In this document: positions 4,840 to 45,832 of the stretch, in pieces
Layout: each line of letters opens with the position of its first letter
Numbering within the stretch: position 1 is the first letter of the stretch
NCBI GenBank assembly: GCA_037134875.1
Contig: JBAXLH010000001.1
Coordinates: 5,322 to 69,321, forward strand
DNA length: 64,000 nucleotides
Origin: a bacterium
Lineage (GTDB): Bacteria; Patescibacteriota; Minisyncoccia; Phycocordibacterales; DATDWN01
Direction of reading: 5' to 3'
Position numbers and translations under genes: made by a program
The notes under the pieces: generated by a model
Databases searched by the model: none
Told to the model about the DNA's origin: nothing
The model's input: the letters and a program-made list of their open reading frames with translations, nothing else

Positions 4840-5517
4840 TTATAAAGTGTACGATGAAAATTCTTCGAAAACTTCCTCTGGATTGTCTGCATCTAAAATA
4901 GCCGAGCCAGTAATGAGTTTTTTTGCACCTGCTTTGACAAGAGATTTTGCTGTCTCTTCGGTAACACCAATATCAATACCAATTATACAGTTCGGGTAGT
5001 GTCCATGCAATTGACTTATACGATTCAAAACTTTTAGATCGAGAGCGGCACCGTGTTTGCCGAGCGAATCATTTCCCATACATTGAATAAAATCAACTTG
5101 TGATACAAATTTGTCGAGTTTCGATAAGTCGGTCGATGGTTTGATAGCAATTCCAACGGTCACCAAATTTTCTTTGCAAATATCAATTACTTTTTGAAAA
5201 TTATCTGTTGCCTCGATATGCGCAACGATTGCTGATACACCGGTATAAATCCAATCTCGTACAACATCCTCTGGATTTTTGACCATAAGATGAATTTCAA
5301 AATCAACATCTTCCCACCTCGGCCAGCCTATTGCTTCTGTTTTCAACTTTTCAAAAAAATCAATGTCACGACCATTGTATGGCCATGTTTTGACGGGCGT
5401 AAACATACCATCGGAAATATCTATTTGGATGAGGTGTGCAAAAGACGCGACTCTGGAAATTTCTTCCTCTGTTTGTTCTCGCGTTTTTGGAATAATTGCT
5501 GGTACGACTATGGTCAT
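4840..5517 (-). CDS. rpe: Ribulose-phosphate 3-epimerase-like TIM-barrel protein
   Basis: 225 aa. The sequence …IDISDGMFTP…IHLMVKNPE…VAHIEAT… follows the Rpe pattern. The protein is divergent near the phosphate-binding loop. Confidence 0.65.
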   Translation of the reverse strand: MTIVVPAIIPKTREQTEEEISRVASFAHLIQIDISDGMFTPVKTWPYNGRDIDFFEKLKTEAIGWPRWEDVDFEIHLMVKNPEDVVRDWIYTGVSAIVAHIEATDNFQKVIDICKENLVTVGIAIKPSTDLSKLDKFVSQVDFIQCMGNDSLGKHGAALDLKVLNRISQLHGHYPNCIIGIDIGVTEETAKSLVKAGAKKLITGSAILDADNPEEVFEEFSSYTL

Positions 5518-13980: not shown

Positions 13981-15021
13981 CTACTCTTCCAATTCCGGTT
14001 TTTCTAGGACGACTGTTTCGATGCCGACGGCAGTGCCAGAAATGCGTACCACATCTTTGTCGATTTTTTTAAACTCTTTGCTCGACTTGTTGAAATGGTT
14101 GACGACTGTCTCGAGCGAGTTGCCAAGCTTGTTGTGATACTCTTCATAGCTCTTGAGGTGCGTGGAGAGCTCGCCAACCCGCTTTATAATGTCCTTTGCT
14201 GTCTCCTCGATCTGCATCGCCTTGAGACCTTGGAGAACTGTCTGGAGATATGCCAAAAATGACGTCGGCGAAACAATGATCACTTTGTATTTTCCAGCCG
14301 CACGTTGTATGAGATTTTCTGTGTCCTCACTCACCGCACCGATTTTGTTGATAAGGAGATCATAGTAAATCGCTTCGTGTGGAATAAACATAAAGGCAAA
14401 ATCCATCGTCCCTTCGTCCGGACGAATATATTTTGATGTCTCTGTAATGCGGAGCTTGAGATCATTCATAAAAAGTTTTTCCAGTCGGTCTTTCTCACTC
14501 GGATCTTTTGCCTCGGAAAGTCTGTTGTAGTTTTCTAGAGAAAATTTTGAGTCCACTGGAATGATTTTGTCTTTCACAAACACGACCGCGTCCACAATTT
14601 CGCCATTTTTGAATCCATACTGCATTTGGTACTGACTTGGTGGCAATACATTTTTGAGAAGTGTTTCCAGATAATATTCTCCGAGAATTCCGCGCTGTTT
14701 TGGATTTTTCAAAATGTCTTGCAAGTTCTGGAGCTGGTCTGCAAAGGAAACCACCTGACGATTTGTTTCGTCGAGTTTTGTCAGTCCTTTTGTGACCTCG
14801 CGAATAAGATTTGCCGACTCGCCGAGCTGACTTCGCACCGACTCATTCATATGTCGGCTACTCTCACCGATCTTTGCATCCATGGTGCGGTTGAGTTCGT
14901 TGATCTGCTGGAGAATGAGCTTGAGACCAGTATCGTCTGTCGTTTTCTGACTCGGTCGCAAAAAATAAACAATAAACCCACCAACAATGAGTCCAATCAA
15001 AATGTAAAGTAAAATTTCCAT
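13981..15021 (-). CDS. rmuC: DNA recombination protein RmuC
   Basis: 346 aa with an N-terminal TM helix, a long coiled coil and the RmuC C-terminal domain. Confidence 0.8.
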   Translation of the reverse strand: MEILLYILIGLIVGGFIVYFLRPSQKTTDDTGLKLILQQINELNRTMDAKIGESSRHMNESVRSQLGESANLIREVTKGLTKLDETNRQVVSFADQLQNLQDILKNPKQRGILGEYYLETLLKNVLPPSQYQMQYGFKNGEIVDAVVFVKDKIIPVDSKFSLENYNRLSEAKDPSEKDRLEKLFMNDLKLRITETSKYIRPDEGTMDFAFMFIPHEAIYYDLLINKIGAVSEDTENLIQRAAGKYKVIIVSPTSFLAYLQTVLQGLKAMQIEETAKDIIKRVGELSTHLKSYEEYHNKLGNSLETVVNHFNKSSKEFKKIDKDVVRISGTAVGIETVVLEKPELEE

Positions 15022-16102: not shown

Positions 16103-18835
16103 TTACTTGCGATATTTCTCCTGAATCTGCCTCTCAATCTCTTCCCTATCCCCTCCGTACGTGAGATACGATAATTGTTTGAGCGAATCAATAATAGCTG
16201 GATCGCCTTTTGGTGGAAATGGTTCTTTGATGTTGAATGCTTTTTGTGAGGTACCGTTCATAAGCATTTTTACATAGGCATTCAAGTTATCAATATTCAT
16301 AAGATCTTTTGCGGTAAACACCGGAGAAAATTGTTTTTCTAAATATTCTGCGTCCTCGGCACTCACTCGAAAAGAAACAATCGAGCCAACGTTACCAAAC
16401 ACTGCATCGCGGATATTTTCCTGAAGTTGGGCAATAAACTGATGTGCAACAGTCAGTGACAGTTTGTATTTTCGTGCTTCAGAGAGAATGGATGAGATTG
16501 AATCCGTCGTAATGTTTTGGAACTCGTCGATGTAGAGATAAAACGGCGCAAAATCTTTTCCGTAGGAGTCCACACGAGAGAGAGCCGCCATCAGAATTTT
16601 GCCGACAAGAATGAGACCGATGAGATTGGCATTTATATCTCCCAATTTACCTTTGGCCAAATTGACGAGAAGTATTTTTTTGTTATCCATTATGTCGCGA
16701 AAATTGAAAGATGATTTTTCCTGTGCCACGATAGGTCGCATAACTTCGTTTGCAAGAAATACGTCAAATTTATTCACAATATATGGAACAATATTTGCAA
16801 GCGATGACTCTCCGCCAGCTTTCTCAGCAATTTCTTTCCAAAACTCTACAATGACAGGATTTTTGCATCTGGAAACTTTCAAATCCCTAAATGTTTTGTT
16901 GGACAACACCCGAGACACATCCAAAAGTGTACAGCCGGTCTCTGGATCTTCAACAACAAGCATCGCAGCATTTCTAAAATATTGCTGGAAAGCCGGTCCC
17001 ATTGACTCTGGAACATTACCATACAGTTTTTGGAATATACTCAAAAGCTCGTTGACCACAAATGTTTTCTGCTCCGGAAACTTTGGATCATACTCAAGCA
17101 TATTGAGGGCCATTGGACGCTCGGTGTAGCTTGGATCAAAATAAATCACATCTTTGTAACGGTCTTTTGGAATATTTGCCAAAATATCAATAATATCTGT
17201 ACCGTGTGGGTCAATAAAACAACATCCATTACCTCTCTCGATATCCTGAATAATAAGATTTTTGAGAAGAACAGTTTTTCCAGCACCAGTTTGTCCAATG
17301 ACATATAAATGTCTGAGTCGGTCCTGATCCTGCATAAATATTTTTGTCTCAACGTTTCGATAGTTGTTGACACCAATAAATGTACCATCTTCTCCCATAC
17401 CGAGCGGTGCTGGCGCAGAAACAGCCTGATTTTGCTTGAGCTGTGGTGATGGTGAAAGATCTGTTGTGTTGAAATGTAGTAGTGATGTTATTTCGTGCAG
17501 ATTGAGAGGCAATAGCTCGTCTGGATTGTAACTCCTGAAAGAAAAATTTCTGAACATTTTTTGCAGAGCACCTTTTTCAAGACGTTTCCACTCGAGTGAG
17601 TTGGAGACAGGATCGGAAAATTGATTGAATGATGACTCGATACTTTTCAAAATCCGCTCGGAATCCGGCCGACTCTGTGTCGAGACAACGATACGCACAT
17701 TTGTTGCTACTATTTCGCTGGCGATTTTTTGTTTAATTTTTTGAATTGCATCATTGTCCACCGGCTTCTTTTCTTCACCCTCTTTTGGTAATGGTTTGAA
17801 AATTTCTTTGACTGTTTTTGCAAAATCTCCAACAAATGTTTCTGGCAGATTGACCGCGTCTTTTGTTGGCACACCTTTTTCTATTTGCTCAATTGCATAT
17901 TTGTATTTTTTGGTGAAATAGTCCCCTTTTGGAGAGAAAACAATTTGAATTGCAGCTCCTTCGCCATCTTTTGCAATCTTTGAAAAACTGTTGATAACAA
18001 CATTCATTGGATCGTAGTCAAATGACTCGTATGTTTTGAATGGATACACTGGCTTTTCTTTTGTGGTGAGATACGAACCGAGCGAAACACCTTCTCCATT
18101 GAAAATATTGTAGTCATTTGTCGCCTCGACAACTCGCGCTGTCGAGAAAATAGAGACAATGTGTTTCTCAAAAAGCTGTTTGAATTCATCGGGCACCGCA
18201 ACATAAAATACAAATTGGTTACTGCCATTTGCGTTTGCAATTTCGAGTGCAATATAATTTTCTTTTTCTTTTTTTGAAACAACCGAAAGCATTCCAGCAT
18301 AAAACTGCTCCATACTGGAAATCACTTCTTTGAGTCCTTTTTGTTGTTTTTCTTTTTCTTCTTCAAGAAGCACAACCTCATATAAAGTCATTCCAACACC
18401 GCGGAAATCTCTCTCGGAAAGGTTGAGATCATTTGGCTTGTATCCACTTTTTACAAATTGCACCAAAAAACGATGAAAATCATCATCGAGATGAGGGTCT
18501 TTCATTTCAGACAAAACAGAAAGTGCGTTTTTCACACCTTTTTCATTGAGTATTCCGAGGAGCTCCTCCATCTTTTTGTCGTGTCGCTCCGGAGCGAGAT
18601 TCAAAACAATTGACTCAGCATCAGCCTTTGAAAGTGCATACGTATCCGAGAGAACATCTTTTGATAATGTGTCTTTATATTTTGAAATTTGTTCGCGAAC
18701 AACGGTGTCGGTATCCACTTTTTGATCTCGTTCGTGAAGCTGTTTTTCTTTTTCGGCGATTTTACCACGCAAGAAATTTATTTCCTCTTCGGGTGATGTA
18801 AAGCGAGAAGTATTTTCGCTCAAAACTTTTTCCAT
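16103..18835 (-). CDS. VirD4/TraG-like (type IV coupling-protein / DUF87-type) P-loop ATPase
   Basis: 910 aa. The Walker A motif is GQTGAGKTV. The C-terminal …YLYIDEFQNITT…LSLTVAHQFIAQL… resembles the TraD/TraG C-terminal region. The family assignment is tentative. Confidence 0.55.
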   Translation of the reverse strand: MEKVLSENTSRFTSPEEEINFLRGKIAEKEKQLHERDQKVDTDTVVREQISKYKDTLSKDVLSDTYALSKADAESIVLNLAPERHDKKMEELLGILNEKGVKNALSVLSEMKDPHLDDDFHRFLVQFVKSGYKPNDLNLSERDFRGVGMTLYEVVLLEEEKEKQQKGLKEVISSMEQFYAGMLSVVSKKEKENYIALEIANANGSNQFVFYVAVPDEFKQLFEKHIVSIFSTARVVEATNDYNIFNGEGVSLGSYLTTKEKPVYPFKTYESFDYDPMNVVINSFSKIAKDGEGAAIQIVFSPKGDYFTKKYKYAIEQIEKGVPTKDAVNLPETFVGDFAKTVKEIFKPLPKEGEEKKPVDNDAIQKIKQKIASEIVATNVRIVVSTQSRPDSERILKSIESSFNQFSDPVSNSLEWKRLEKGALQKMFRNFSFRSYNPDELLPLNLHEITSLLHFNTTDLSPSPQLKQNQAVSAPAPLGMGEDGTFIGVNNYRNVETKIFMQDQDRLRHLYVIGQTGAGKTVLLKNLIIQDIERGNGCCFIDPHGTDIIDILANIPKDRYKDVIYFDPSYTERPMALNMLEYDPKFPEQKTFVVNELLSIFQKLYGNVPESMGPAFQQYFRNAAMLVVEDPETGCTLLDVSRVLSNKTFRDLKVSRCKNPVIVEFWKEIAEKAGGESSLANIVPYIVNKFDVFLANEVMRPIVAQEKSSFNFRDIMDNKKILLVNLAKGKLGDINANLIGLILVGKILMAALSRVDSYGKDFAPFYLYIDEFQNITTDSISSILSEARKYKLSLTVAHQFIAQLQENIRDAVFGNVGSIVSFRVSAEDAEYLEKQFSPVFTAKDLMNIDNLNAYVKMLMNGTSQKAFNIKEPFPPKGDPAIIDSLKQLSYLTYGGDREEIERQIQEKYRK

Positions 18836-22639: not shown

Positions 22640-22887
22640 AATTGTCTCCTATATATGATATTAAACAAATATCATTACTTGTCAAGTGTGACCCTACGCG
22701 GAATCACGATTACGTTTTCGGTCAGGAATAATTTTATCGCCATCGCTCAAAAATTTTCCCTACCCGGACTCGCGACCAGTCATGCTCGACTGGTACCCGC
22801 TCCGTCTTTCGATTCCGCATGAAATTGCATACTATGCAATTTCTGTAGGGTCATGCAAAAATCGCCACAAGGGCGATTTTGCTGACA

Positions 22888-22959
22888 TGACCCTACGCGG
22901 AATCGAACCGCGCTTCTAGCCTTGAGAAGGCTATGTCCTAGCCGATAGACGATAGGGCC
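22888..22959 (-). tRNA. tRNA-Glu (anticodon CUC), 72 nt, no encoded CCA
   Basis: The reverse strand reads GGCCCTATCGTCTATCGGCTAGGACATAGCCTTCTCAAGGCTAGAAGCGCGGTTCGATTCCGCGTAGGGTCA. It folds into a cloverleaf with a 7-bp acceptor stem (one G·U), a D-loop with GG, an anticodon loop TTCTCAA and a T-loop TTCGATT. Confidence 0.7.
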
Positions 22960-23057
22960 AATAAAAACAAAACTATGCACTGAAATAATATAACATTTTT
23001 TATTAAAAAATCAAAAACCGTCACGACGAGGTGGCGGAGTTGAAAAATTGTTTGTTT

Positions 23058-36303: not shown

Positions 36304-36505
36304 AGGTTTTTAAAAGTTTGCGAGTTTTGTAAATTAAAACTACGGCGAGATCATTTTCTTTTCTGAATTATAGTTTTACGACCCTTGTCTCGGCACAGTA
36401 ATTTTGGAGCACGCGATAAGTCCTGCTGGACTTTCGCTCAATCTCGCGCCGTCGCGCTCCGAAGTCTCCAAAATCACTGCGCCTTCGACGTGGTCGTAAA
36501 TCTTT

Positions 36506-37597
36506 TCAAAGTAACTTTAATATATCATGTCCGGTAATAACAATCATCAACACCAAAAGCAGAGCAAAGCCGATCGCATTCGTCCATTGGAATATTTTTG
36601 GTGGGATTGGTCGGCGAATTATTTTTTCTATCAGAATGAAAAACAATCGGCCTCCATCGAGTGCTGGAAATGGAATGAGGTTAATGACTGCGAGGTTGAT
36701 AGAGATGAGAGCAACGAGAGACAAGATGTACACAAAACCCAAATCTTTTGCCTCGGAAAATGATCCGGCAATTCCCACCGGACCGGCGACTTGGGAGAGA
36801 TCAAAATGAAATGTCACAATGTTGTACAAAAATCCAAAGAGACCAGTCACAGTACTTTTTACTAGGAGAATTGTCGTTCGGCCTCCCTCGTACAGCGCAC
36901 CAAAGAAAGAAAGTTTGACTGTGCCAATCGTATCCATCGAAATACCGATCATTCTTTTGCCACCGAGATTTGGTGTGAGTGAAATGTTTTTTGACGCTTC
37001 GGCTCCCCGCTTGTACGTCATATCAATTTTTTCCGACAAGCTTTTTGCAATAAGTTCTGAAATTTTTTCCGGTGGAATTGCATCTCCAGCAAGCACATTT
37101 TTACCAGCACCAACAGAGAGAATGGTATCTCCCGCACGCAAGCCCGCCTTTTCTGCTGGCGACCCAGGAAAAACATTTATAATAACTGTATGAGCGTTGG
37201 AAACATTTGCACCACTAATATATCCAACCGGTGACGGGAGACCAAGCATAAATCCAAGTGAAATTAGAATCCATGCAAAGATAATGTTAAATGTAACTCC
37301 AGCCACAAGCACGAGAGCTTGAATCCATTTTGGTTTGTAGAAAAAACTGCGAGGTTTGTCTGCCTCACTGATTTCCTGACTATGAGGATCTTCACCAAAA
37401 ATTTTTACAAATCCGCCAAACGGAATTGCATTTATGGAATACACCGTCTCGCCTATTTTCTTGCCGTATACCTTTGGTGGAAAACCGAGACCAAATTCAT
37501 CTACACGAATACCTGACTTTTTTGCAACAATAAAATGTCCAAACTCGTGGACCAAAATCAAAATTGCAAGCGCAACAATAAAAATAAGAATGGACAT
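36506..37597 (-). CDS. rseP: RIP metalloprotease RseP (site-2 protease, M50)
   Basis: The motif is LVHEFGHFIVAK (HExxH). There is a PDZ region and a C-terminal LDGG motif. Confidence 0.9.
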   Translation of the reverse strand: MSILIFIVALAILILVHEFGHFIVAKKSGIRVDEFGLGFPPKVYGKKIGETVYSINAIPFGGFVKIFGEDPHSQEISEADKPRSFFYKPKWIQALVLVAGVTFNIIFAWILISLGFMLGLPSPVGYISGANVSNAHTVIINVFPGSPAEKAGLRAGDTILSVGAGKNVLAGDAIPPEKISELIAKSLSEKIDMTYKRGAEASKNISLTPNLGGKRMIGISMDTIGTVKLSFFGALYEGGRTTILLVKSTVTGLFGFLYNIVTFHFDLSQVAGPVGIAGSFSEAKDLGFVYILSLVALISINLAVINLIPFPALDGGRLFFILIEKIIRRPIPPKIFQWTNAIGFALLLVLMIVITGHDILKLL

Positions 37598-44757: not shown

Positions 44758-44819
44758 ATAGACAGTATAAACGATTTTTGTTATCTTATAAATGTGTTTG
44801 AGTAAAAACACAAACATTC

Positions 44820-44842
44820 CGCGGTAGCTCAGTGGTAGAGTG
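44820..44842 (+). pseudogene. Truncated duplicate of the tRNA-Asn 5' end (23 nt identical: tccgcggtagctcagtggtagag)
   Basis: It is identical to 45013-45035. The downstream sequence lacks a T-arm or 3' half. Confidence 0.55.
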
Positions 44843-45012
44843 AGATTGGGGTGGGACCCAATCGCAAGACCGGAGCGCGACGGCGCGAGGTGGGGTCGCA
44901 GGATTTTTCAACAGAAAAATACCTGTGACGAGCCTGTGTGGTATATAACATTTTTGAACCCCTCTTGATTACTATTTTGAGAATAATAATCAAGACAAGT
45001 TTTGAAATATAT

Positions 45013-45366
45013 TCCGCGGTAGCTCAGTGGTAGAGCGATCGCCTGTAAAGTGCTTGCAGCTTCCTAAAGTAATTTAGGCTGAAAAATGAGGTGAATTCGG
45101 GGAAACCCCACGTGGGCAATCCCGAGCCAAGCCACTTTCAAGTTTTGATTTTTTATATTTAGAAATTAAAACTTGAAAGTGGAAGGTGTAGAGACTATCT
45201 CGAAAGAGAGTAGTTATTATTTTTCAAATAAAATAATCACGAAGCGCCCCACATCCCACTTGTTTATCAAAAATAGATAAAGGATGATGATATAGTCCAT
45301 ACCAAAGGCAACTTTGGAATCAATGTAAGCGATTGGTCGTAGGTTCGATCCCTACCCGCGGAGCCA
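45013..45366 (+). tRNA. tRNA-Asn (GUU) interrupted by a group I intron in the anticodon loop; CCA encoded
   Basis: The 5' exon TCCGCGGTAGCTCAGTGGTAGAGCGATCGCCTGT spans 45013-45046. The 3' exon TAAGCGATTGGTCGTAGGTTCGATCCCTACCCGCGGAG+CCA spans 45326-45366. The splice satisfies the group I rule (5' exon ends in U, intron ends in G). The alternative reading is Tyr(GUA) if the boundaries are shifted by 3 nt. Confidence 0.6.
45047..45325 (+). ncRNA. Group I self-splicing intron (no ORF)
   Basis: About 279 nt. It contains the conserved group I core element GATGATATAGTCC (consensus AAGAUAUAGUCC, P7/S region) near 45283-45298 and ends in G. Confidence 0.65.
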
Positions 45367-45744
45367 AAAAGTTTAAACCCCGAAAGGGGTTTTTACTTTT
45401 CTTGGCTCCGTGGAGCAGAACAGGGTTCTGCGTGTAGGGATCGAACAGTTTGTCGGTTTACAAGTTTAGCAAAACTTGTCGACAAACTGGTGGCCAGGAT
45501 TTTCTGTTTTGACGAAAACAGAAAATCTGAGGCCGATACCCCTACCCGCGGAGCCAAAAAGTTTAAACCCCGAAAGGGGTTTTTACTTTTCTTGGCTCCG
45601 TGGAGCAGAACAGGGTTCTGCGTGTAGGGATCGAACAGTTTGTCGGTTTACAAGTTTAGCAAAACTTGTCGACAAACTGGTGGCCAGGATTTTCTGTTTT
45701 GACGAAAACAGAAAATCTGAGGCCGATACCCCTACCCGCGGAGC
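45367..45744. repeat. Tandem direct repeat, 2 x 190 nt; each unit ends in a copy of the tRNA-Asn 3' end (cctacccgcggagcc) and begins with its inverted copy (ggctccgtggag)
   Basis: The two units are identical (45367-45556 and 45557-45744). Each has a terminator hairpin aaaccccgaaaggggttttt, an inverted degenerate T-arm-like segment (gtagggatcgaac) and two long hairpins. Confidence 0.8.
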
Positions 45745-45832
45745 AAGAGACCCGAAAGGGTCTTTTCTCATACCACACAAACACAACTTGACCAATTATT
45801 GACAACGATAAGTCATTGCTATAATTTTATTA

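Follow-up and report, generated by a model that had tools for sequence, protein, structure and literature searches.

Downstream of the tRNA-Asn(GUU) gene in a 64,000-nt stretch of a Patescibacteriota genome of Parcubacteria/Nomurabacteria type (GenBank assembly GCA_037134875.1, contig JBAXLH010000001.1, forward-strand positions 5,322 to 69,321; hereafter the window), two identical 190-nt units stand in tandem, each of them a discrete, non-coding and hairpin-rich cassette at the 3' end of the tRNA gene. Here, we describe the anatomy of this cassette (cassette X in Table 1), a family of related cassettes with a patchy distribution among Parcubacteria, their conservation and the covariation of one of their hairpins. 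The cassette is a discrete element with boundaries at a tRNA-end repeat, is present or absent among relatives, occurs in diverged arrays and with inserts bearing open reading frames (ORFs), and has interiors whose relationships do not follow those of the hosts; for these reasons we favour, as a tentative choice that falls short of even confidence, recombination of a non-autonomous DNA cassette at the 3' ends of tRNA genes, with its duplication through the flanking repeats. As a group, the cassettes suggest that elements specific to tRNA ends form a family not described before. Little is understood of mobile DNA and gene flow in the candidate phyla radiation (CPR; Patescibacteria), whose genomes are tiny and heavily streamlined. 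Given this streamlining and a conservation that, by sequence comparison, exceeds that of housekeeping proteins, cassettes of about 150-200 nt should not be accidental.

The original prediction, made from the letters of the stretch and a list of its ORFs, had described a 2 x 190-nt tandem after tRNA-Asn whose units are bounded by inverted and direct copies of the tRNA 3' end and contain two long hairpins and a terminator, and had regarded the ORFs at 45476..45802 (+) and 45583..45795 (-) as artefacts of the repeat. This description was borne out throughout. Tandem Repeats Finder places the tandem at 45350-45744 with a period of 190, 2.1 copies, 100% matches and zero indels, and a repeat search recovers two 190-nt copies (45350-45539 and 45540-45729) at 100% identity, together with exact occurrences of the 15-mer CCCTACCCGCGGAGC at 45350, 45540 and 45730. 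With up to three mismatches allowed and degenerate inverted copies included, this 15-mer occurs five times in the window against 0.22 expected, a count reached in 0 of 100 shuffles, and beyond 45745 no degenerate copies exceeded chance. The inverted tRNA 3' end is seen in two pairs of arms, 45343-45365 with 45424-45446 (87% complementary) and 45356-45377 with 45392-45413 (77%). The two ORFs have no Pfam, PHROG or database relatives and are uncalled in the public annotation of the contig.

Starting from the tRNA, each unit opens with an intrinsic terminator, T1 (AAACCCCGAAAGGGGTTT followed by TTACTTTT, at 45375-45392 and 45565-45582), which has the G+C-rich hairpin and T-run by which such terminators are recognised and covers merely about 30 of the 190 nt. 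It is followed by an inverted acceptor segment (iA, TTGGCTCCGTGG), in which the 3' strand of the acceptor and GCCAA appear as their reverse complement, one G-T pair included, and by an inverted T-arm segment (iT, GTAGGGATCGAAC), the reverse complement of the T-loop and the 3' strand of the T-stem. Between the two lies hairpin H1, with a stem of 7 bp in the window, and downstream of them come H2 and H3, both long and nearly perfect. The unit has a minimum free energy (MFE) of -102.7 kcal/mol (z = -12.4), the complementary strand one of -95.8 kcal/mol. In the predicted fold, a multi-branched structure is closed by pairing between the inverted segments and the direct tRNA-end copy that lies downstream of them. 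This fold would have the stem topology of a tRNA, and a discriminator and an encoded CCA are present in the sequence; about 100 nt with two hairpins stand in place of the T-loop, and there is no match to a tRNA model.

The tRNA-Asn gene itself is overlooked by ARAGORN in its unspliced form because a 279-nt group I intron interrupts the anticodon loop; with the exons 45013-45046 and 45326-45366 joined, a tRNA-Asn(GUU) is accepted by the program. The intron separates anticodon position 35 from position 36, is preceded by a U (U-1) at its 5' splice site and ends in a G (omega-G); it is absent from all seven related tRNA-Asn genes examined. A preprint reports 21 bacterial tRNA types split by introns and mentions 'ghost exons' near such genes (10.1101/2020.01.27.920355). 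The window holds one other tRNA gene, for tRNA-Glu, and no further tRNA gene occurs in the 8 kb added to the right side of the contig (loci L041 and L042).

Table 1. Features of the two tRNA loci and of the palindromic repeat family in the window (H1-H3, hairpins; T1 and T2, terminators; iA and iT, inverted acceptor and T-arm segments; DR2, direct repeat copy 2).
Feature	Position	Strand	Basis or remark
tRNA-Asn(GUU) exon 1 (acceptor 5' strand, D arm, anticodon stem 5' strand, loop to U35)	45013..45046	+	ARAGORN on spliced sequence
Group I intron in anticodon loop	45047..45325	+	Rfam RF00028 at 45042-45318, 70.2 bits, E = 9e-16
tRNA-Asn exon 2 with encoded CCA; 45350-45364 (15 nt before final CA) is direct repeat copy 1	45326..45366	+	sequence, ARAGORN
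Cassette X unit 1 interior, 175 nt	45365..45539	+	repeat, fold and hairpin analyses
Modules of unit 1	T1 45375-45392; iA 45402-45413; H1 45415-45431; iT 45434-45446; H2 45446-45489; H3 45492-45534; linker GATAC 45535-45539
DR2, CCCTACCCGCGGAGC, equal to the 15 nt of the tRNA gene before final CA	45540..45554	+	repeat search
Cassette X unit 2 interior, 100% identical to unit 1	45555..45729	+	absent from L002, L010
Modules of unit 2	T1 45565-45582; iA 45592-45603; H1 45605-45621; iT 45624-45636; H2 45636-45679; H3 45682-45724
Direct repeat copy 3, followed by AAG not CA, hence without encoded CCA	45730..45744	+	sequence, repeat search
Second terminator T2, GACCCGAAAGGGTC + TTTT, diverged T1 look-alike	45745..45769	+	88% to T1 core
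tRNA-Glu(CUC); last 17 nt (22904-22888) is direct repeat copy 1	22887..22960	-	tRNA search, Rfam
Glu cassette, X-like architecture from tRNA-Glu sequence	22689..22886	-	repeat, fold, hairpin analyses
Modules of Glu cassette	T1 22880-22858; inverted acceptor 22856-22845; H1 22844-22821; inverted T-arm 22820-22808; two further hairpins; direct repeat copy 2 22705-22689
5' counterpart: ghost of first 23-25 tRNA nt (44816-44840), then structured leader insert with GC-rich core 44874-44889	44816..45012	+	repeat search, relatives
Palindromic family, four window copies	2500-2690; 33060-33210; 36380-36520 (minus strand); 44840-44930

The same layout recurs after tRNA-Glu, where it is built from the sequence of that tRNA. 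The direct copies of the Glu cassette are 17 nt long and 199 nt apart, its inverted acceptor includes two bases of the trailer, the stem of its H1 has 10 bp, and its MFE is -88.6 kcal/mol (z = -7.4). Outside the arrays of a TIGR-Tas locus described below, exact direct repeats of at least 15 nt at a spacing of 60-450 nt are found in the window at these two tRNA genes only, except for one 17-nt pair (34366/34753) inside an annotated Cyt-b5 ORF.

To place the cassette among relatives, we used contigs encoding homologues of the neighbouring ribosome hibernation factor (HPF), which were retrieved via that protein and carry locus numbers (L) below. The check suggested by the original prediction, whether the unit occurs elsewhere or next to other tRNAs, had a positive outcome, since in addition to the Glu design homologous cassettes exist in four other Parcubacteria lineages, as single, tandem-diverged or ORF-interleaved copies. 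In L029 (Parcubacteria C7867-006) and L013 (a JGI contig), the tRNA-Asn gene has no intron, and behind it lies a single cassette whose modules come in the order seen in the window and which ends in another copy, 15-16 nt long, of the tRNA end. A similar cassette is present in L032, L033 and L037, with a repeat of 15 nt in L032. The tRNA of L026 has another acceptor type (TCCGGTG / CGCCGGA) and the 17-nt repeats of this locus match its own tRNA; the order there is tRNA, cassette, two ORFs (286 and 70 aa), a second complete cassette and a third tRNA-end copy. Both of these ORFs (L026 700-2160) are preceded by the same leader of about 70 nt (GGAGCCTTCAAAAAGACC...GGGTTTAGAACT) and followed by the same trailer (AGAGTTCTGAACTTGTCCA..ATGA.GGAG), and leader and trailer hold inverted repeats of each other, which gives the region the appearance of a cassette array. 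The 286-aa ORF has a weak TraB/PrgY/GumN match. Two tandem cassettes with interiors only 51% identical are found in L015, which shares synteny (PriA, def, fmt, HPF) with the window in a rearranged form and has no tRNA within 890 nt upstream of them. Neither this array nor that of L026 is a plain duplication in place. Throughout, the tRNA-end repeat matches the local tRNA.

Both occupied and empty sites are seen among these relatives. L030 retains a remnant of only the left approximately 75 nt of a cassette, and L009, L011 and L038/L039 have neither a cassette nor a T1-like hairpin after tRNA-Asn; the terminator comes with the cassette. L038 has at the same site an insert with a 73-aa ORF, and the repeat on either side of this insert is 23 nt long and consists of the tRNA end plus trailer. 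Beyond the loci retrieved via HPF, a scan of a species-representative genome collection with fmt gave a single distant match, to a Candidatus Nomurabacteria metagenome-assembled genome, a 21-mer specific to DR2 recovered one locus (L015) in a metagenome scan, and comparison of a cassette-derived pseudo-ORF with a protein database yielded no additional cassettes.

Conservation was assessed by comparing cassette interiors, without their tRNA-derived repeats, against host divergence expressed as the identity of concatenated fmt, def and HPF, which is 58-67% at the amino acid level among hosts outside one genus. The interiors fall into two subtypes, one comprising the window and L015 and the other L013, L026 and L032. 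Within the latter, interiors are 65-81% identical, compared with about 50% for shuffled controls; between hosts at 66-67% amino acid identity the values reach 75-81%. The window interior is 62-69% identical to the two units of L015. These two loci belong to the most distant hosts (58% aa) and yet share an identical stretch of 60 nt that spans the repeat, T1 and the inverted acceptor. Judged from these sequence identities, the cassettes are better conserved than housekeeping and neighbouring proteins. The two cassettes of L026 belong to different sub-lineages, one being nearest to L032 (81% over 146 nt) and the other to L013 (85% over 86 nt). The layout remains constant while the interiors range from 50 to 80% identity.

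H1 varies in sequence and keeps its shape. Changes on both sides of its stem occur in six of the nine pairs, 98% of the cells are paired and the covariation score is reached in 0 of 500 shuffles; in slid controls, the paired fraction drops to 33-44%. H1 sits exactly at the boundary of acceptor and T-stem in all Asn subtypes and in the Glu cassette. Compensatory changes are also seen in the stem of the small hairpin that precedes DR2, which reads GATCC/GGATC, GACCG/CGGTC or TTCA/TGAA.

The number of units differs between assemblies of the strain. The window is base-identical to contig CAZJNJ010000001.1 of assembly GCA_964547445.1 (locus L001), where there are two units with a clean unit-to-unit junction. 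L002 and L010, assembled from the same strain with MEGAHIT (k = 141), contain exactly one unit and are base-identical in the rest of the region, and the MEGAHIT contig behind L010 and L041, 100 kb in length, is collinear with the window. From this difference between otherwise identical assemblies of one strain it follows that the second unit is either a very recent, polymorphic duplication or an assembly-dependent feature. That it is an assembly artefact, with a single real cassette on the chromosome, strikes us as unlikely. Two independent MEGAHIT contigs speak for it, but they are no proof of one copy because a de Bruijn assembler with k below the unit length normally breaks or collapses a true two-unit array; against it stand the two units with a clean junction in the deposited NCBI contig and the diverged two-unit array of L015, which indicates that tandem states are natural. 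If the two units are real, unequal recombination between the 15-nt repeats accounts for their identity no less readily than a second integration does. As an observation on one of these contigs, the ENA contig k141_405694 ends in a Nextera/Illumina adapter (CTGTCTCTTATACACATCT...) followed by poly-A (L002 6285-6395), a contaminated contig end. In practice, cassettes of this kind yield ghost tRNA fragments and spurious ORF calls, and short-read assemblies can break or collapse at tRNA genes that carry them.

In its anatomy, the cassette supplies a terminator to its tRNA and then carries the inverted last 25-30 nt or so of the tRNA gene, split by H1 exactly where acceptor and T-stem meet, followed by one to two further hairpins and a direct copy of the last 15-17 nt of the tRNA. 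Paired on their own strand, the inverted and direct copies would recreate the duplex of the tRNA gene end. In the mechanism that we tentatively prefer, the cassette would behave as an att-only-like, cis-mobilizable element that can be inserted, lost or stacked at tRNA 3' ends, with the tRNA-end repeat as the crossover site or as a duplicated target and with recombination activity supplied in trans. The two units in the window may then represent a very recent change in copy number that is polymorphic in the population and came about either through a second insertion or through recombination of one flanking repeat with another. We infer that DNA is the level at which the cassette acts and that a trans-acting recombinase exists.

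Several observations weigh against this mechanism. Trailer nucleotides form part of the inverted copy, and the terminator is the centre of its palindrome, which argues for a local DNA origin and not for an imported tRNA mimic, and the resemblance of T2 to T1 in the window and in L013 likewise fits local duplication better than imported DNA. The direct repeats vary in length (15, 17 and 23+ nt), and the ghost copies at the tRNA 5' end described below are not explained by an integrase acting at the 3' end. The Asn and Glu cassettes share a layout and no sequence, being 52% identical compared with about 50% when shuffled, and therefore have no shared site for an element-specific recombinase. No integrase, recombinase or transposase was found in the window or beside the related loci by Pfam scans, which covered every ORF of at least 250 aa and most of at least 190 aa in the 64 kb and precomputed domains of genes around L001 and L010-L040; a 513-aa ORF (30902-32443) that had been considered as an IS110-type recombinase on a weak Transposase_20 match is a TIGR-Tas endonuclease according to NCBIfam. 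Neither did the cassette sequence occur in viral contigs, where searches returned nothing or unrelated coding matches in high-GC phage contigs, and the unit gave no BLAST match in phage and plasmid collections. The original prediction of a mini-element integrated twice in tandem, with a cognate integrase to be looked for, holds up in part: the unit is discrete, repeat-bounded, variable in presence and able to stack, whereas the integrase did not turn up, the element is not one sequence but is rebuilt at tRNA-Glu, and its origin appears local.

Other searches for a mobile or structural relative were equally restricted in outcome. No integron integrase, attI or Xer-type site was identified, and at the gathering threshold Rfam 15 yields only the group I intron and tRNA-Glu in the window; over the cassette, with E up to 10, there were only chance microRNA and CRISPR-DR matches far below threshold and no tRNA model. 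A phage attP was considered and dismissed, as the occurrences of the tRNA-Asn 3' end in IMG/VR are phage tRNA-Asn genes within tRNA arrays and not att sites. Prophage cargo was likewise rejected, the small ORFs after the cassette and the ORFs of L026, L038 and L030 having no informative Pfam or PHROG matches; the 286-aa protein of L026 has no relatives in viral contigs.

The first rival concerns the origin of the layout. Replication template-switching could have produced a snap-back 'inverted triplication' between the quasi-palindromic T-arm and the terminator, neutral or nearly so, and we hold this explanation to be improbable, while giving it second place. The nascent strand would switch at the terminator and back in the T-loop, giving the order tRNA end, terminator, inverted end, direct end and terminator; the hairpins would be later template-switch growths, and the 2 x 190-nt tandem would have arisen by unequal recombination between the direct copies. 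Such an origin accounts well for tRNA-derived modules tailored to the adjacent tRNA at both tRNA-Asn and tRNA-Glu, for an inverted copy that is palindromic about T1 with spacer and trailer bases included, for a T2 that looks like a decayed T1 in the window and L013, and for analogous direct and inverted fragments on the 5' side. Before DR2, moreover, the sequences GTAAGGATCGATAC-CCCTAC (L013 and L026), GAGGCCGATAC (window) and CGTAATCGTG (Glu) join a reverse-complement T-loop to a forward T-stem and thus match the predicted second switch junction. Perfect hairpins with stems of at least 8 bp are few in the window, and 7 of the 18 lie within or beside the two tRNA trailers. Template switching is known to yield inverted triplications (PMC4689423) and to create or maintain hairpins with apparent compensatory changes (PMC8794818). 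It leaves unexplained, however, the 75-81% nucleotide identity of the interiors between hosts at 66% protein identity, the incongruent subtypes within L026, the constant site of H1 and the ORF-bearing inserts within the same repeat, and an independent local origin at each locus does not agree with interiors that are homologous across four lineages at 62-81% identity.

A second rival, which we place third and consider less likely again, is that the cassette works as RNA, either as a functional tRNA-like RNA or as a structured trailer, transcribed by read-through of T1 or from an internal promoter. The iA segment would pair with the acceptor part of DR2 and iT with its T-stem part, with a continuous 3' strand identical to that of the tRNA and with H1 interrupting the 5' strand where a tRNA has its D and anticodon arms. 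RNase P, RNase Z or the CCA-adding enzyme could accept a mimic of this kind as a substrate, and it could serve as a decoy, as a processing signal or as a regulator of the cognate tRNA. The MFE folds are consistent with this, as iA and iT pair with DR2 in seven of eight cassettes, Glu included (a closing stem, H1 and an inner stem enclosing the hairpins), and the tRNA-sense strand is more stable than its complement, by 1.5 to 15 kcal/mol, in seven of the eight. Further points in its favour are the covariation of H1 and the compensatory changes in the hairpin before DR2, G-U pairs in the closing stems on the tRNA-sense strand, a second terminator after DR2 at several loci, conservation above that of neighbouring proteins, the constant position of H1 and the continuous 3' strand. 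On the other hand, a terminator stands between tRNA and cassette and no convincing internal promoter was found in the cassette; there is no T-loop in sense orientation and no match to tRNA or other Rfam models; the inverted acceptor strand is degenerate in L013; close relatives dispense with the cassette; and covariation can also be generated by template switching (PMC8794818). A retro-element or primer-binding-site origin of the inverted copy was rejected, because the Glu copy matches genomic trailer bases and not a CCA end.

We therefore rank the recombining cassette first as a tentative preference, template switching second as an unlikely alternative and the functional RNA last as a less probable one. 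More than one of these readings may hold at once: most of the data would be accommodated if the cassettes arose by template switching and then spread by recombination, with the conserved tRNA gene as the anchor.

The 5' side of tRNA-Asn mirrors the arrangement at the 3' end. In relatives free of inserts, a conserved promoter (TTTTTGATATTATCTTTATAT) directly abuts position 1 of tRNA-Asn, and four loci have, after the promoter, copies of 6-25 nt of the tRNA 5' end that structured inserts separate from the gene (window 44816-45012; L013 3714-3960, minus strand; L026 262-473; L030 1720-1803). These ghost copies are often paired with a nearby inverted copy to form a hairpin. The leader insert of the window, L013 and L026 contains the GC-rich core AGCGCGACGGCGCGAG, with a compensatory change from G-C to C-G in L026, and the leader repeat has no Rfam match. 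In a palindromic repeat family, this core (a hairpin GCGC-GACG-GCGC) is invariant and is accompanied by a second hairpin with an AGCA or AACA loop. Three of the copies in the window tip long, locus-specific inverted repeats that resemble bidirectional terminators, and the fourth is the one in the leader of tRNA-Asn.

A few further observations concern the rest of the window. The TIGR-Tas locus occupies 29700-33050; its gene, at 30902-32443 on the minus strand, scores 129.7 bits where the NCBIfam cut-off is 100 and its product matches PDB 9mty_A, and the gene is flanked on both sides by array-like units with box C/D-like motifs (GTGATGAGGG...AGTTCC..AAAGGAAC...TACCCTCA); such systems were described in 2025 from phages and parasitic bacteria (PMC12045711). 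Just past the TIGR-like array and a GC-core palindrome lies a 24-nt tandem repeat (33467-33516, 2.1 copies, 81% matches). A 910-aa homologue of TraG/TraD-like coupling proteins (16103-18835, minus strand) and an RmuC-family protein (13981-15021, minus strand) are encoded as well, and both could bear on DNA uptake or on the handling of palindromes. The RmuC family has been linked to limiting inversions at short inverted repeats.

Among known systems, integrative elements offer the closest parallel for the repeats. Site-specific integration typically leaves its mark as a partial duplication of the tRNA on the two sides of the inserted DNA (Reiter 1989 and Williams 2002, cited in PMC9897764); decayed att-only elements (cis-mobilizable elements, CIMEs) and tandem accretion have been documented (PMC5704250), as have asn-tDNA integration hot spots in Klebsiella (PMC4891358). 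Like the att duplications of such elements, the direct repeats of the cassette correspond to the 3' part of the tRNA, from within or next to the T-loop, and bracket an insert while the tRNA remains intact. Tandem stacking at one site, presence that varies among relatives and the lack of own recombination genes are likewise shared with integrative elements and CIMEs. The cassette differs in its size, about 175 nt compared with kilobases, in having no integrase nearby, in its inverted copy of the target split by a covarying hairpin, in a design that is rebuilt for a second tRNA without common sequence, and in the ghost copies at the 5' end.

In integron attC sites and in the attP(+) hairpin of CTX phage, a folded single strand recreates the target or recombination duplex. 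By analogy, the cassette can be likened to these sites as an imperfect palindrome of variable length whose pairing ends would recreate a duplex and whose structure is kept above sequence; it may also resemble them in forming tandem arrays, sometimes with one copy per ORF (L026), and in that the enzyme is not necessarily encoded in the element. The core of the cassette repeat, on the other hand, is 15-17 nt of tRNA instead of a 7-nt core or a dif site. We regard it as a speculative and rather improbable extension of this analogy that CPR tRNA-end cassettes form an undescribed class whose folded strand imitates the acceptor/T-stem duplex of the neighbouring tRNA gene and which provides integron- or CTX-like sites at which a host or trans enzyme captures, stacks and shuffles small non-coding and ORF segments at tRNA 3' (perhaps 5') ends, or that the same fold acts as a tRNA-mimicking RNA. 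If the cassettes are recombination sites, tRNA genes would have a new way of capturing genes that needs no integrase linked to the site.

With the inverted triplications produced by template switching (PMC4689423, PMC8794818), the cassettes share the order direct-inverted-direct, junctions at terminator and T-arm hairpins and long, near-perfect stems. Template-switch rearrangements are usually private and short-lived, whereas the cassettes are homologous across lineages, conserved above proteins and equipped with a recurrent hairpin at a defined position; if template switching did produce them, nature would offer here an exceptionally clear example of an inverted triplication that was seeded by hairpins and has persisted in several lineages.

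Structures processed by tRNA enzymes without being tRNAs include the tRNA-like structures of viruses, mascRNA and bacterial YrlA. In the modelled fold, the cassette would resemble these in an acceptor-like stem on a T-like stem, a continuous 3' strand identical to the tRNA, a discriminator and, in the window, CCA; unlike them, it has no sense T-loop, D-loop or anticodon arm and no match to a tRNA covariance model. If the cassettes are RNAs, they would form a new class of tRNA mimics. Integration of the casposon or CRISPR type can leave long target duplications at tRNA 3' ends, and the cassette is similar in its duplication of about 15 nt at the very end of the tRNA gene; it differs in that its ends have no terminal inverted repeats, that no Cas1-type gene was found and that the duplication measures 15, 17 or 23+ nt. 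The family is unrepresented in Rfam and in phage and plasmid collections, and it is known in kind, as tRNA-end duplications around inserted DNA.

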